A DNA stretch of 64,000 bases from Candidatus Tantalella remota (GCA_030765685.1 JAVCCB010000050.1:11735-75734); one strand, 5' to 3'; numbered from the stretch's first letter, positions 21,001 through 30,000 are shown. Numbers are program-made.

Positions 21001-24000
21001 GACGCTGCATGCTCTCGGTGCCGGCATAGAGGTTGTCGAGCCGCAGATAGCCGGAGATACTCAGTCTTTGGAAGACGGCGCTACTTATCCGGTAAGGTAT
21101 TATTTCCCGGGGTATGAGAGAACTGGCGCTCAGAAGATGCTTGATATCCATAGGGTAGACGAAATGACAGCTGCTGTGTCCGTTGAAGCCAGTCCGGTAG
21201 TGATAGCCGAGGATAGTACGGTCAAAGTAGAACGGCTTCCGGGAAGTTTTGAAGACAAGGGGCTTGAAGTTCACAGGATAACTCTTGCTGACGAAGCCAG
21301 TCTTGACGTGACGAACGTTGAGAGTTTTCACAATCTGGTAGTGGTCGAGGGAAAAGCCAAGCTTGTCATGGGCGGCGAAGAATACGATATACCTAAAGCC
21401 GTGCCGGGCGGTGATATGCTGATAGTTCCCGCTACCGCGGGAAGCTACAGGATCGTTGCCGAGGGGCAGACGCAGATAATAGACACTTTTACTCCGGTAC
21501 CGGAGACGCATTCGGTAGCCGTTAATCTGGGTGAGAATATCCCGGGTCCGGAAGTACCTTCAAGCGTTGAAAGCGTTGTGTACGCTGATTTTCCGGGAAT
21601 GTCATCCACTTTTGACCAGGTTTATCTTGTCAATGGCATTATCGTTCCGGAAATAATCCAGGGCAGACCGCATGAGATAGTGATGCAGGAAGGCGCGGTA
21701 CGTATAGAGAGAGCCGATGGCACTCCGGTAACAGAACTGATGAAGGGTGAGAAATACGCGATGGATGGAAAACTGGGCGATTATAAGATAGTAAAGACCA
21801 GCACGGAAAATGCTGTAGCAAAGATAGATTATGAGAACACTGACGAGGAAAAGATAGTCTACGAGACTTATGCCGCTGTCCGTAAACATCTGGACGGGAT
21901 CAAGGAAGACCGGATAGACCTCATAATGGCCGAAGAGATGTTCGTCCGTGGAGGTAAGAATGTAGCGGGATCTGCAAAGTGGGAAGAAGAACAGCTCAAA
22001 AAATATGTGAGCGACAAAATAAGGGTAACCACCTATAGCGCCCGTATGGGCCTTAAGGATGCCGCGAGGAAATCTATCAGGAAAGGCGCGATAGCTATAC
22101 TTGTAGCTCCGGAGGAGAACATAAGGGAAGCTGACAGGTCCGACAAGAAAGTTCAGGATTTTCTTTATGGTAAAAAGGGAAAACTTAGGGTCATGGCTAT
22201 CCCGGATATACACAAAGAAAAAGATCTTGAGAACAAAGGCTGGTTCTTTAACCGTGAAGTAGAGGGAACGGCGCTTCTTTTGGCGGCCGTCAACCCGGGA
22301 GACATAAAGATGGAAGGGGAAGGCAATGCCGCGGACGATCTTCAGAAACTCATGGGCCGTCTTACAGGCAAAGAGATACCCCGGCAGTTCCTGTATTACA
22401 TGTTAGCCCGTGATGAGATGGGTGACGCTCTGGATAAGCTTCCGGATGAGCTAAAGGACGATGCATTCGGCTGGCTCGTGTTCCTTGTACAGGAGATGCT
22501 TCTTAAGATGCCGATCAAACCGTATACGGATAAGGCTCTTGAACAGCTCAATAACAGACGTAAGATCATGTGGTCTGTATAATATAGAGTGCGTAACGAT
22601 AATAAAAAAGCAGGCTTAACGGCCTGCTTTTTTGTCTAGTGATAAGGTTACCGAGCGTAGGGGGTAGATGACAACCAAGGAAAAGTAAAAATGGAAAGCG
22701 TCATCCCCGCATGCTCTAAGCGGGGATCTCGTAAGAATGACCACTTTTATGTGATCCCGGATATCCGCTATCCTCCTTCGTTAAAACTACGGCGGACAGG
22801 AAGCGGATTCCGGGATCACGTCTTGATTCCCGCTTTCACTGCGCCTTCGGCTTGTGCCCCCTTACCGGCTCGCCTCGTTTGCGCGCATGGTGTCGTGGAA
22901 ATGACGTTCGAGTGTCCGCGTCCCCTAGTCCCAAATCCCTCGATTACCTGATATCCTGACCCTGTTCACAGTTTCCAGTTTACAGTTCACAGCCTACAGT
23001 TTACAGTTTACAGCTTACAGTTCACACTTTACAGTTCACAGCTTACAGTCTATACTAGGACTTTATCAGAATAGATAATAGGACAAAATATGTCTAAAAA
23101 TAACTCCATATATAATACCCCCGGGCTGAAAGAGGTCCTCGCGAATGTGCAGGCCGCGCATGATCTTTCGGCGAATAACGACAGTGTGAATACGGTCGTT
23201 ATCGTATCCGGCAATAAGGTAGATAAGGAGAATTTCGAAGCGCGCCTCGCACTTACGAGCAGTCACATATTCAACAGCGATAACAGTACGTTCGTCCTGT
23301 CGCTTCAGGAAAAGACGGGGAAAAAGACCAGAGAGGGTAATTTCCTCGGCACTTTGCTGGCATACAGGTATCTGAAAAAAGCGGCGGCGGAGGAGAATAT
23401 CGATTATCGTGATTTTGTCACGCTTGTGGGAATGCTTTTCGGCAGAGGAGAACGTATGTCGCCGATAACCCAGGCCAAAGGCTGCAGGAAACCGGGGACG
23501 GAGGTATCGCCTGCTAACGTAGTCGTAGGGGGCCAGAAGAAAGCGTTCACGGCCATAGAGGAGGCGCTGCATTATTTCACTCCTGTCGCTAAACATCTTG
23601 AAAGATGCGGTTTTAGGGGGCTTCTGGACAAATGGGGCGATGAGACCGAGATACCGTCGGCCGATATGACCGCCTCCGCCGACGGCGGTCTTTGCGCGGC
23701 CGGCTGCGATATCATCAAGATTTTATCCGTCATGGAGATAACAGAAGAGCTTGCCAAACAGAAGGACTGGGTAGTTTTTGACGATGATAACAATATGGCC
23801 TGTCAGATATCACGTAGCGATAAAGATACCATAATCGAACAGTTGAAGCAGTTGGGTATAAAACCGCGCGCTGATGGAAAATATTACGCGGGGGTAAGTC
23901 TTGGTCCGGTAGCCGTTTCCTATGACGTCCTGGATATCGCCCTGGAAGTATTTGAGAAAGAAATAGCCGCCCCGGGTGTGTATTTCGATTTTGATCCGTA

Positions 24001-27000: not shown

Positions 27001-30000
27001 CGGTAATGCCGAGTCTGCCGCGGACATGCTAAAAGATGAGATGCCGCAAGCGGCTATAGGTGAGGAAATCTTGACCAGGGCGCAAAAAGAACTGGATGAC
27101 TTCTACAACTATATACTGGTAACTGTCGGCGACGTTATTCCGGTACCTTCGGGCACATTGCACGCGCTTGGCGCGGGCGTGCAGGTAGTGGAGCCACAGA
27201 TACCCGGAGAGACGCAGTCCATGGAGGACGGCGCTACGTATCCTGTACGGTACTACTTTCCGGGATGCGAAAGGGAAGGGTCTAAGAAAGAACTCGATAT
27301 AGACCGTACCGACGAGATAAAAGCGGAGGTCGTCGTCCTGACGTCACCGGAGATCTTAAGAAAGGATGAGCAGGTAAAGATCGAGCGGCTTCCGGGGGAT
27401 TTTGAGGAGAAGGGGCTGGAAGTCCACAGGATATCTTTGAAAAACGGCGCCCATATGGAAGTTTCTGATATAAAAAGTTTCCATAATCTTGTTGTTGTCG
27501 GTGGAGAGGCTACGGTTGCCATTAATGACAGGGATTATTCTGTTCCGCAGGCGGTTCCTGGCGGAGAGGTATTAATTATTCCCGCTGTAACTGGAAAATA
27601 TACCATTAAAAGCGCCGTCGGGGCGCAGATAATAGACACTTTCATCCCGGTTTGAAGACTGCATTCTTAAGCTACATATCCAATCACATCAAGAGATATC
27701 ATAAGGCCTTAAAGCTTTTTAAAGGACTTTATAAATGATAAGTTGACAGAATATTGAAATTCTTGTAAAATATTTGCGCTTATAGTCGTACAATAAATAG
27801 TAATTTTATCTACTAATTTAATAATAGGGACTACATGGAAAAAGCATCATTTTTACAGGAGCTCAATAGACAGAAAGTATCTTACCTGTTTATCGCGGTA
27901 CCTTTCACTCTATTTTTCGTTTTTCAGCTTGCACCTGTCATAATCTCATTTTTCTGGTCTTTTACGGAATTTAACGTGGTGCATGCGCCGCGGTTCGTCG
28001 GGCTGGCCAACTACAAGAACATATTATTCAATGATCCCCTTTTCTGGAAGGCGATGAGGAACACGGTCCTTTACGTATTAGGTGTTGTTCCCATTGGAGT
28101 ATGCACCGCGCTCTTGTTAGCGGTCGCTATAGACCAGAAAATAAAATTTAAGAACCTTTTTAAATCCATATTTTTTCTGCCCACGGTCACATCTATAATC
28201 GCCGTATCTGTCGTATGGAAATGGCTTTACGCGGGTGAAAAATACGGGTTGATAAACTATGTGATGATAAAGTTGGGGTTTCAGCCTATTGACTGGCTGG
28301 CAAGCCCCACGTGGACGCTTCCGGCGATAATGATAATGTCAATATGGGCCGGGGTGGGGTACAGTATGATAATTTTTCTCGCGGGACTTCAAACCATACC
28401 GCACGTTATGTACGAAGCCGCCGATATCGACGGCGCGGGGTTCTGGCGAAAACTGTTCAACATCACGATACCTCTTTTAAAACCCACGATAGTCTTCGTG
28501 ACCATGATGAGCTTTATTTTCAGTTTTCAGGTGTTCGAGCAGGTATACATCATGACAAGCGGGCAGGGCGGGATAGGCGGGGTACTGGATAGCGCGCTTA
28601 CCATAGTCGCCTATCTCTACGAAAAGGGGTTCGTTAGGTTTGAGATGGGGTACGCCTCGGCGATGGCGTACATAATTTTTATACTGATCTTCCTTCTGAC
28701 GCTGCTTAACAGGCGCTTCATGAAGACTGAGGTGGAATATTGATACGCGAAAAAACCAAATACGGAGGATATAAAGCATAATGGCCGGCAAGCCGATAGC
28801 TATAAGAAGAGATTCATTCACTATCAAGACTTTTGTATATATTTTCCTGATAGCGGGCGCGTCTACTATGCTGGTGCCGTACCTGTGGATGCTAGTGACC
28901 TCCATAAAGCCGCTTGCGGAGATACAGTCGTATCCGCCCAGTTTTATGGTGAAGAACCCCACGCTTGAACCTTACAGGGACCTGTTTCGCATGATACCGA
29001 TGTTCAGGTATATGTTCAACAGCCTTTTTGTGGCGGGCGCTATAACGCTTTTCAACGTTTTTGCCACGTCGCTGGCGGGTTATGCTTTTGCGAAACACAA
29101 GTTCTGGGGCCGGGACAAGCTGTTCTTTCTATTTATCGGGTCGTTGATGATCCCCTGGCAGGTGAACATAATCCCGGCTTTCATCATCGTGAAAAACCTT
29201 GGATGGCTGAACACGTACAAGGGGCTGATAATACCGTCCATGGCATGGTGCGCGTTCGGGATTTTTCTGAACAGGCAGTTCATATACAGCATACCGGACG
29301 ACCTGATAGACGCTGCCAGGATCGACGGATGTAGCGAGTTCATGATATATCGTAAAGTCATTTTGCCCCTGATAAAGCCGGTTCTCGCGACGCTCGCTAT
29401 ATTTACTTTCCTGCAGCAGTGGAACAACTTTGTGTGGCCGCTGATAATAATACATACCAGCGAGATGAGGACAGTGCCGCTCGCGCTTGCTGTTCTTACG
29501 GGACAGTTCGGTGCGAATTTCGGGATGGTAATGGCGGGAGCTGTTGTAGCTACGCTTCCGATGCTCATAGTGTATCTGCTTTTTCAGAAATATATAATAA
29601 AGGGCATAGCTATGACGGGATTATTATGACGAAACCCTGCGGTATGAGGTATAATATATGATGGTTTTAGGGACTAAATTAAAGAGGAGAAGGAAGAAAG
29701 AATGAAGAAATCACTTGGTATTTGTTTTTTGGTATTTGGGTTATGTGCGATAGTCGTTACGGGTTGCGGGAAACAGGAAGCGCTTCCCCCGACAGTTTTA
29801 GATGTACAGGAAGCCGTGGTCGAAAAAACGGCGACCCTTGATATAGTGGAAGTGGCTCCGGGAGAAGAGCTTGCGTATCTTACCGTTATGGCGGCGGAAG
29901 CTTCCAGTTTTGATCAGACGCCGGATTGGGCGCCTGAACCGAACCCGATGTCAGCGGCAGACGGTGATATGCTTACCAGGTGGTCAAGCGACTACATAGA

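Follow-up and report, generated by a model that had tools for sequence, protein, structure and literature searches.

The stretch of DNA analysed here, referred to below as the window, comprises 64,000 nucleotides (nt) from Candidatus Tantalella remota (GCA_030765685.1 JAVCCB010000050.1:11735-75734), an uncultured member of the Omnitrophota from an Antarctic lake that has been described as a sugar fermenter (PMC8542988). Its gene 4 (Table 1) is an uninterrupted open reading frame (ORF) of 1521 codons, the product of which matches the NCBI hypothetical protein P9L88_04555 of the same organism at 100% identity and carries no evident signal peptide or transmembrane segment at its N-terminus. Three modules follow one another in this protein: a domain with a predicted sugar-1-phosphate nucleotidyltransferase fold (N domain), a putative phosphomannomutase (PMM) and a putative class-I phosphomannose isomerase (PMI). 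The first two are separated by a linker of about 10 amino acids (aa 559-568) and the last two by a longer, Pro/Ala/Gly-rich one. An earlier note on this DNA had proposed that a single polypeptide covers the whole route from fructose-6-phosphate (Fru-6-P) to GDP-mannose. The single polypeptide is borne out, the frame being continuous across both junctions, and all the motifs then quoted were located (TGSHIP at residues 668-673, DGDSDR at 825-830, RPSGNAPE at 1073-1080, SVQFHD at 1226-1231 and SGTLHALG at 1354-1361). The catalytic motifs of all three modules are kept in about 35 homologues, down to 44% identity, and this retention, which includes the catalytic residues of the PMM and PMI modules in gene 4 itself, argues against the modules being pseudo-enzyme scaffolds. 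A long ORF of this kind could also arise by a mis-assembly or a sequencing error merging three neighbouring genes, and in relatives the three modules are indeed encoded by separate, adjacent genes; with the frame unbroken and the same N-PMM-PMI fusion recurring, at 51-60% identity, in four or more other independent assemblies (P0003, P0007, P0008 and P0009), besides other fusion orders in further sources, this explanation was rejected and its probability appears negligible.

The central module was recognised by the Pfam families PGM_PMM_I, II, III and IV over aa 572-1099, with 76.2, 37.8, 37.4 and 24.0 bits against cut-offs of 22.5, 29.3, 20.7 and 23.1 (E-values from 2.7e-21 to 4.2e-5), all four domains lying above their curated thresholds. 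The closest solved structure is 4HJH, a phosphomannomutase of Brucella melitensis (E 1.6e-82), to which the four predicted catalytic loops align: the phosphoserine S670 in TGSHIP, the Mg loop D825/D827/D829 in DGDSDR, the sugar loop with E910 in WESNGG (909-914) and the phosphate loop R1073...S1075 in RPSGNAPE. All four, the phosphoserine included, are conserved in about 30 homologues. The preference for mannose that we infer for this module has only two pointers, namely the name given to 4HJH by its depositors and the fused PMI.

For the C-terminal module, homology to class-I PMIs is significant, TIGR00218 (manA, class I) matching aa 1164-1511 with an E-value of 3.2e-12 and 46.3 bits, a score under the equivalog cut-off of 116. 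PMI_typeI_cat (PF20511), at aa 1154-1235, straddles its cut-off of 22 with 20.1 bits for the whole protein and 22.4 bits for the isolated segment, and a weak match to MPI_cupin_dom (18 bits) covers the C-terminus. The type-I assignment made earlier stands as homology, and the module is best regarded as a predicted divergent subgroup of class-I PMIs. Among the putative zinc ligands, Q1228 and H1230 fall on the Gln and His of the Salmonella ManA motif LSIQVH (3H1M/5ZVR alignments across LSxQxH) and H1358 on the His of SGTLHAL in Bacillus subtilis 1QWR. The remaining one, E1235, is matched by its motif, KNELW, which we take to be the equivalent of KTECW in short class-I PMIs; in the family alignment, a Glu ligand motif this close to the Gln/His pair is that of the short class-I subgroup. 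All four residues are conserved in the neighbouring gene 3, in P0002-P0009 and P0033, and in the stand-alone PMIs of the related loci L003 and L005.

No curated Pfam or NCBIfam family exceeded its threshold over the N domain (aa 1-560). NTP_transferase (PF00483) reached 15.2 bits (E 0.016; cut-off 21.2) over profile positions 198-243 of 245 only, which correspond to the WxDxG region, and it matches weakly in 4 of the 27 N-family members that were aligned (alignment A1, which includes archaeal and acidobacterial sequences). The Hexapep_GlmU model gave an E-value of 0.7 only, and PF07959 (Fucose_pyrophosphorylase) failed to match gene 4 and was found in 2 of the 27 members, at best with E 0.1. 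Searches of PDB sequences with the N domain, by phmmer and by profile, returned spurious matches only (ETAA1, CodY and an antifreeze beta-helix); FKP, the L-fucokinase/GDP-fucose pyrophosphorylase of Bacteroides fragilis, was reached neither with A1 nor with an alignment of gene-3-type sequences (A2) when these were used as profiles against the same sequences. A search with aa 1-560 alone yielded about 50 close relatives, many of them stand-alone proteins of about 555 aa, none of which is named or carries a Pfam domain.

An AlphaFold2 model of the N domain computed on A1 (predicted local distance difference test score 92, predicted template modelling score 0.91) comprises an alpha/beta nucleotidyltransferase core with a helical insertion (aa ~300-353), followed by a left-handed beta-helix (aa ~412-510) and by helices at the C-terminus. 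Its best structural match, by a wide margin, is the GDP-fucose pyrophosphorylase domain of FKP, and the other fold neighbours include ADP-glucose and UDP-glucose pyrophosphorylases. The domain had been described earlier as a nucleotidyltransferase of the FPGT/fucokinase family with a hexapeptide beta-helix; the predicted structure upholds the fold, and the hidden Markov model (HMM) scan speaks against membership of PF07959. Judged by the model, the N domain is a new and very divergent family within the FKP-like nucleotidyltransferase fold.

Residues invariant in A1 are E74, GNFLGT (83-88), G118-x-G-x-R122-x-x-P125...K134, KWGDE (181-185), DFDP (300-303) and W370-x-D372-x-G-x-H376. They include a G-x-G-x-R-x(n)-K signature (GRGERMSP...K134) and two acidic candidate Mg2+ ligands, D184 in KWGDE and D372 in WADVG. 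The WxDxG form around D372 is presumably the classical one of enzymes such as GMPPB. In FKP, Asp31 serves guanine, Gly75-Arg80 and Lys89 the triphosphate, and Asp136 and His272 Mg2+, and Val137 touches the methyl group of fucose (PMC11982464). Read from residue order and spacing, the counterparts in the N domain would be E74 for Asp31, G118-R122 for Gly75-Arg80, K134 for Lys89, D184 for Asp136 and D372 for His272, with K225 or R242 as candidates for Lys187, and E185 replaces Val137, a change that suggests a 6-hydroxy hexose as substrate. The N domain could instead be a non-catalytic sensor or regulator which, like GMPPA or eIF2B gamma/epsilon, binds a sugar nucleotide and controls either the PMM and PMI to which it is fused or a distinct catalytic transferase. 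We hold this to be improbable: the invariance of the glycine-rich loop, R122, K134, D184 and D372 in 27 diverse gene-4-type members is the pattern of an active site and not of decay, and the Omnitrophota loci examined show no canonical transferase in the vicinity.

A profile search of 1.84 billion cluster representatives returned 495 members of the N family at E<=1e-3 and 353 at E<=1e-10. They belong mainly to the Omnitrophota, and also to Spirochaetales, Chloroflexota and Acidobacteriota, a deltaproteobacterial metagenome-assembled genome (MAG) and a Pacearchaeota archaeon. Their database labels read 'hypothetical', 'phosphomannomutase' or 'mannose-6-phosphate isomerase', and the N domain occupies N-terminal, internal or C-terminal positions in its host proteins. 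The architectures found are N-PMM-PMI (about 1500 aa; gene 4, P0003, P0007-P0009 and P0149), N-PMM (about 1110 aa; many proteins, P0010-P0032), N-PMI (P0033 and P0123), PMI-PMM-N (P0034 and P0115), PMM-N-PMI (P0102) and PMI-N without PMM (P0114, P0120 and P0106), most members of the family joining N and PMM with no PMI in the same polypeptide. In the scanned fusions P0102, P0106, P0114, P0115, P0120 and P0123 the PMI is of the long ManA type (88-114 bits), and N has thus been joined independently to two PMI subtypes, this one and the short class-I form.

The same association is seen between genes. N, PMM and PMI are three adjacent genes in L003 and L026 and three overlapping genes in L040 (Ca. 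Omnitrophus magneticus); in L005, N and PMM are fused and PMI is the next gene, and in L007 as well as in the window all three are in one gene. The ends of the separate genes of L003, L026, L040 and L005 map to residues ~558, ~561-1110 and ~1130-1138 of gene 4, that is, to its two linkers. Elsewhere N adjoins a glycosyltransferase of the NodZ/O-FucT type, which uses GDP-fucose (spirochaete L038), a sugar epimerase/dehydratase (L030) or a GT-C glycosyltransferase of the PMT_2 family (Chloroflexia MAG L044), and the PMI-PMM-N fusion of L008 sits in a housekeeping context after the ATP-synthase genes atpD/atpC. Because fusion is repeated and independent of order and operonic linkage is tight, N, PMM and PMI would catalyse consecutive steps of one pathway, and since the conversion of mannose-1-phosphate (Man-1-P) and a nucleoside triphosphate (NTP) into NDP-mannose is the only step joining PMM and PMI to a nucleotidyltransferase, it is the one assigned to the N domain; the functional assignment rests chiefly on this argument. 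With PMM and PMI as its fusion partners, its substrate is probably Man-1-P and not beta-L-fucose-1-phosphate.

Directly observed are the three modules, their homology or fold, the retention of catalytic motifs in each, and the recurrence of fusion and operonic linkage among them; with these, gene 4 probably encodes a cytoplasmic trifunctional enzyme for the three steps between Fru-6-P and nucleotide-activated mannose. The three-module reading of the earlier note is supported by homology and fold, motifs, fusions and operons. In the scheme that we infer, with mannose as the sugar, guanine as the nucleotide and a presumed direction of flux, the PMI, a predicted zinc cupin with the ligands Q1228/H1230/E1235/H1358, would interconvert Fru-6-P and mannose-6-phosphate (Man-6-P). 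The PMM would interconvert Man-6-P and alpha-Man-1-P by means of phosphoserine S670 and the Mg loop D825/D827/D829. The N domain would then convert Man-1-P and an NTP, most probably GTP, into NDP-mannose and pyrophosphate, the glycine-rich loop G118-R122 and K134 holding the triphosphate and D184 and D372 holding Mg2+.

Several observations weigh against this assignment. The N domain misses every curated family threshold, PF00483 and PF07959 included, it is only 12% identical to FKP, and its residues were paired with those of FKP from order and spacing, not by superposition. PMM/PGM (phosphoglucomutase) enzymes are often dual-specific, and for this reason glucose is conceivable as the sugar for N+PMM forms. 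In Pyrinomonadaceae (L045 and L046) the N gene is followed by a canonical NTP_transferase gene with a left-handed beta-helix (LbH; GMPPB/eIF2B-like, 348 aa) and then by PMM; N is there no simple replacement of the classical transferase and could have another specificity or role, and the neighbouring transferase-type genes might divide catalysis and regulation between them or differ in specificity. The surroundings of several stand-alone N genes are unrelated, with NAD/CoA genes in Spirochaetales and a topoisomerase gene in Chloroflexota. At the spirochaetal loci (at least three; L001, L002, L030 and L031 are named) the stand-alone N gene is always directly followed by a gene of about 590 aa that fuses CTP_transf_like and CoaE, and in L001 and L002 it is preceded by the genes for NAPRTase and NAD synthase; the mannose hypothesis does not explain this pairing.

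The N domain might also be an active nucleotidyltransferase for another product, ADP-, UDP- or GDP-glucose, with a mutase acting mainly as PGM for glycogen, trehalose or another glycan and a PMI that only joins the mannose and hexose-phosphate pools. The dual specificity common in the PMM/PGM superfamily, the ADP-glucose and UDP-glucose pyrophosphorylases among the fold neighbours and the preponderance of N+PMM forms without PMI would all suit such a product. So would the predicted synthesis of glycogen and trehalose by Ca. Tantalella (PMC8542988) and the co-occurrence of PGM/PMM and starch-synthase modules in long Omnitrophota proteins (10.64898/2026.06.07.730766). The direct fusion of N to PMI without PMM in several lineages (P0114, P0120, P0106, P0123 and P0033) is hard to explain in this way, the unfused PMI is the next gene, the closest solved PMM was named a phosphomannomutase, and the top structural match of the N domain is a GDP-sugar enzyme; a glucose product therefore seems unlikely.

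Table 1. Features of the window discussed in the text (positions in nt from the first letter of the window; module functions are predictions).
Feature	Position	Strand	Basis or remarks
Gene 4, predicted trifunctional ORF N-PMM-PMI	23090-27655	+	1521 aa
N domain (aa 1-560)	23090-24769	+	predicted FKP/FPGT-like sugar-1-phosphate nucleotidyltransferase fold
PMM module (aa ~569-1112), putative alpha-D-phosphohexomutase	24794-26425	+	Pfam PGM_PMM_I-IV, 4HJH match, motif conservation
PMM-PMI linker, ~30 aa, Pro/Ala/Gly-rich (ENEPRSVGAQAAKPAPGSDTTAGRVLASVAE)	26426-26515	+	separate-gene ends of L003, L026, L040 and L005 fall here
PMI module (aa ~1143-1521), putative short B. subtilis 1QWR-like class-I	26516-27652	+	TIGR00218, PF20511, structure-sequence and family alignments
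Conserved mannan-uptake locus downstream of gene 4	27835-36660	+	synteny in L003, L005 and L007
Gene 3, 3060 aa: head (aa ~1-865), nucleotidyltransferase-like/PMM/PMI cargo, tail (aa ~2750-3060) ending ...QLNNRRKIMWSV	13400-22582	+	BLAST modularity
Gene 3, divergent N-domain paralogue (aa ~890-1522)	16067-17965	+	hhalign; stand-alone relatives P0087 and P0088
Gene 3, PMM module (aa ~1701-2250), classical PMM/PGM type	18500-20149	+	loops TASHLP, DVDGDR, VEISSH, RPSGTSP
Gene 3, PMI module (aa 2299-2700)	20294-21499	+	54% identical to gene 4 PMI, same ligand motifs
tRNA-Leu(CAG)	42133-42218	-	
smpB	42386-42841		
tmRNA	43028-43409		

Downstream of gene 4 lie, in this order, two ATP-binding cassette (ABC) sugar permeases, a lipoprotein combining glycoside hydrolase family 113 (GH113) with F5/8C, two CBM27-like proteins, a membrane-anchored GH113 protein, an ROK protein and a solute-binding lipoprotein (Table 1). 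This arrangement is conserved in four Omnitrophota genomes, including L003, L005 and L007, whatever the state of fusion of N, PMM and PMI, and mannan-derived mannose is a plausible input to the gene 4 pathway. As gene 4 adjoins this conserved mannan-binding, hydrolysing and ABC-import locus in the Omnitrophota clade concerned, Man-6-P from salvaged mannose would be the likely entry point, from which the PMI would drain to glycolysis and the PMM and transferase would feed glycan synthesis. In other lineages the housekeeping contexts of the triple fusion would fit de novo synthesis from Fru-6-P. The ROK gene (34101-35393) was considered as a mannokinase completing the salvage route and ruled out: its product matches NagC and Mlc end to end in NCBIfam, N-terminal helix-turn-helix included, and is probably the regulator of the locus and not a sugar kinase. 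The equivalent gene in L007 is split into ORFs of 126 and 291 aa.

Several sequence signals flank gene 4. At 22604-22633, 22 nt past the stop codon of gene 3, a perfect GC-rich hairpin of 12 bp, bordered by A6 and T6, resembles an intrinsic terminator that acts in both directions; by this sign gene 4 would open a transcription unit of its own. The 179 nt that separate gene 4 from the first ABC permease contain a near-consensus sigma-70-like promoter, TTGACA-17-TAAAAT, with 11/12 matches (27743-27771). On account of these two signals, co-transcription is not established. A tandem array of 12.3 copies of a heptamer with the consensus GTTTACA (...ACAGTTT ACAGTTC ACAGCCT...) occupies positions 22964-23049, 40-125 nt 5' of the gene 4 start codon, and overlaps promoter-like hexamers; the pattern is absent from the rest of the window (0 expected by chance) and from all 51 related loci, and the array might be a regulator-binding array or a slippage-prone tract.

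The constant position of gene 4, or of its unfused equivalents, 5' of the mannan-uptake locus in the four Omnitrophota genomes, together with the description of the organism as a sugar fermenter (PMC8542988), would also suit a mainly catabolic gene 4, in which PMM and PMI turn mannan-derived Man-1-P or Man-6-P into Fru-6-P for fermentation and N is accessory. A GH130 mannoside phosphorylase, which would yield Man-1-P and so give the PMM a catabolic role, was sought and not found in the window or in the syntenic loci, and no mannose kinase is encoded in the mannan locus, its ROK protein being of the NagC/Mlc type. Both GH113 enzymes are extracytoplasmic, and catabolism needs PMI alone, neither PMM nor a conserved transferase. 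With the triple fusion found elsewhere in housekeeping contexts, and with co-transcription left unproven by the terminator that separates genes 3 and 4 and by the strong promoter-like site that stands after gene 4, ahead of the permeases, we give a mainly catabolic role little weight.

The three-module block had earlier been seen to recur in gene 3, upstream of gene 4. For the PMI this holds, at the identity given in Table 1; the PMM is a distant paralogue without any BLAST or phmmer link to that of gene 4, and the nucleotidyltransferase-like segment (aa ~890-1522) shows remote homology to the N family by profile-profile comparison only (hhalign probability 97.7%, E 1.9e-12, 447 columns). This segment keeps the beta-helix and a glycine-rich loop (FFHDGGQASRFSPIT; HDGGQASRFSP), but where the N domain of gene 4 reads WGDE and WADVG it reads WTSQ and WMTYR, both acidic metal-ligand motifs being lost. 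Stand-alone forms of the gene-3-type degenerate module, of about 745 aa, occur in P0087 and P0088, with the FPGT-like motifs YDIIIVSSTT and YHNGGKGERFSPLTQ, an invariant FWTSQ for WGDE, and a hydrophobic N-terminus that is possibly a signal peptide or a membrane anchor.

Relatives of 2.3-3.1 thousand aa are modular, as seen by BLAST against P0024, P0025, P0028, P0035 and the giants of L003, L005 and L007: a conserved head of about 860 aa is followed by a nucleotidyltransferase-PMM(-PMI) cargo, which resembles that of gene 3 in some and that of gene 4 in others, and then by some 310 aa of tail with the conserved C-terminal motif ...PIKPFDxxxQLxQRRKVMWS[VA]-COOH. Other head-cargo-tail proteins are P0091, P0094 and P0159. 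In gene 3 the head corresponds to 13400-15994 and the tail to 21647-22579; family and fold searches gave no assignment for either, and the start of the tail model shows a predicted cupin-like sandwich. Further upstream, gene 1 (189-3470, 1093 aa) and gene 2 (3900-13214, 3104 aa) have no Pfam match even at E<=1. The first ~520 aa of gene 2 are shared with gene 3 at 30% identity, and genes 1 and 2 have a different C-terminal motif in common (...Y.[YF]LP....DL..EI..Y...).

It is quite possible, and we advance it tentatively, that the N domain is a third, FKP-like class of mannose-1-phosphate guanylyltransferase, the GDP-mannose-forming enzyme of Omnitrophota and of scattered, mostly uncultured lineages, which escapes all curated models. 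The locus would then combine an active, free 'GDP-mannose synthase' (gene 4) with a giant paralogue (gene 3) whose transferase-like module, having lost its metal ligands, may serve as a GMPPA-like sensor or scaffold that links mannan salvage with glycan synthesis.

Beyond the mannan locus, an overlapping set of genes (38211-41391) encodes an ArnT-like GT-C (PMT_2; 187 bits to lipid IV(A) Ara4N transferase), an ArnC-like family 2 glycosyltransferase (GT2) and a YdjC-like protein, a predicted polyprenyl-phosphate-sugar glycosylation module. These genes were considered as a sink for GDP-mannose; being ArnT/ArnC-like, they offer a weak link. The RNA genes and smpB listed in Table 1 follow, and after the tmRNA a low-GC region (34-40% versus about 48%), within 42133-62572, carries genes for a RepB/PriCT primase, DUF3987, two serine resolvases, GmrSD and a type I restriction-modification system with two HsdM genes. 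This region has the appearance of a genomic island, with the tmRNA gene as its site of integration.

If the proposed function is correct, it would give a role to an unannotated family of some 350-500 cluster representatives, all of them 'hypothetical' or named for the fused partner, and would fill in the formation of GDP-mannose in a phylum of which the metabolism is known from genomes alone. It would also add a third enzyme class for the formation of GDP-mannose, beside the classical ManC/GMPPB type and the type-II PMI-GDP-mannose pyrophosphorylases, and a natural single-polypeptide catalyst from a glycolytic intermediate to activated mannose, which could be used in chemo-enzymatic glycan synthesis as FKP is for GDP-fucose. 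The series from three genes to two to one, along with the same block inside head-cargo-tail giants, illustrates clearly and on a small scale how Omnitrophota put together their multi-enzyme long proteins. What is new is the FKP-like transferase family and its triple fusion; fusions are commonplace in Omnitrophota, and the significance is moderate because the chemistry itself is textbook. The earlier suggestion that such a three-step fusion is undescribed agrees with our search of the available literature, which found no natural PMI-PMM-pyrophosphorylase fusion and no account of this transferase family; a search of the same literature on PH0925 found nothing relevant.

Among known systems, the bifunctional type-II PMI/GDP-mannose pyrophosphorylases (ManC/AlgA/XanB/WbpW type), which combine PF00483 with PF01050, likewise hold the mannose-6-phosphate isomerase and mannose-1-phosphate nucleotidyltransferase steps in one polypeptide. 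Their transferase is a short classical NTP_transferase that lacks this beta-helix architecture, their PMI is a type-II cupin and PMM is absent, in contrast to the FKP-like transferase, class-I PMI and PMM of gene 4. Gene 4 was considered as an enzyme of this type and rejected, PF01050 (18.8 bits, cut-off 23.6, over a 43-residue stretch only) and PF00483 both being under threshold and the architecture different. Compared with the NTP_transferase+LbH enzymes (GMPPB/GMPPA, ADP-glucose pyrophosphorylase, ST0452 and the cyanobacterial UDP-glucose pyrophosphorylase), the N domain is about 150 aa longer and has about 35 extra N-terminal residues and a strand-helix-strand before the glycine loop, as in FKP.

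With the GDP-fucose pyrophosphorylase domain of FKP and with FPGT the N domain shares the predicted fold, namely the nucleotidyltransferase core, the extra N-terminal strand-helix-strand and the left-handed beta-helix. It differs from FKP in its low identity and in not reaching PF07959, in the Asp of WxDxG in place of His272, in E185 in place of Val137, in the extra helical insert and in its partners, which are PMM and PMI and not a GHMP kinase. A 2025 phylogeny of FKP chose its sequences by PF07959 and would not capture the N family. The PMM module has unusual loop variants in common with 4HJH (TGSHIPDDRNG, STDGDxDRPL, xExNGG and RxSGNAPE), 4HJH being a stand-alone protein of about 480 aa, whereas the PMM of gene 4 is embedded between two enzymes.

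In the Omnitrophota, PGM/PMM Pfam domains are recurrent modules of long sugar-metabolism proteins (bioRxiv 10.64898/2026.06.07.730766; West-Roberts et al., bioRxiv 10.1101/2023.11.21.568195). The long-protein surveys of this phylum, which are Pfam-based and concern proteins of at least 10,000 aa, make no mention of the N domain, of a PMM-PMI-transferase unit or of a series from three genes to one; the N domain is Pfam-negative. Gene 3 and the other head-cargo-tail proteins of 2.3-3.1 thousand aa fit the picture of 'metabolic cluster' long proteins in Omnitrophota.

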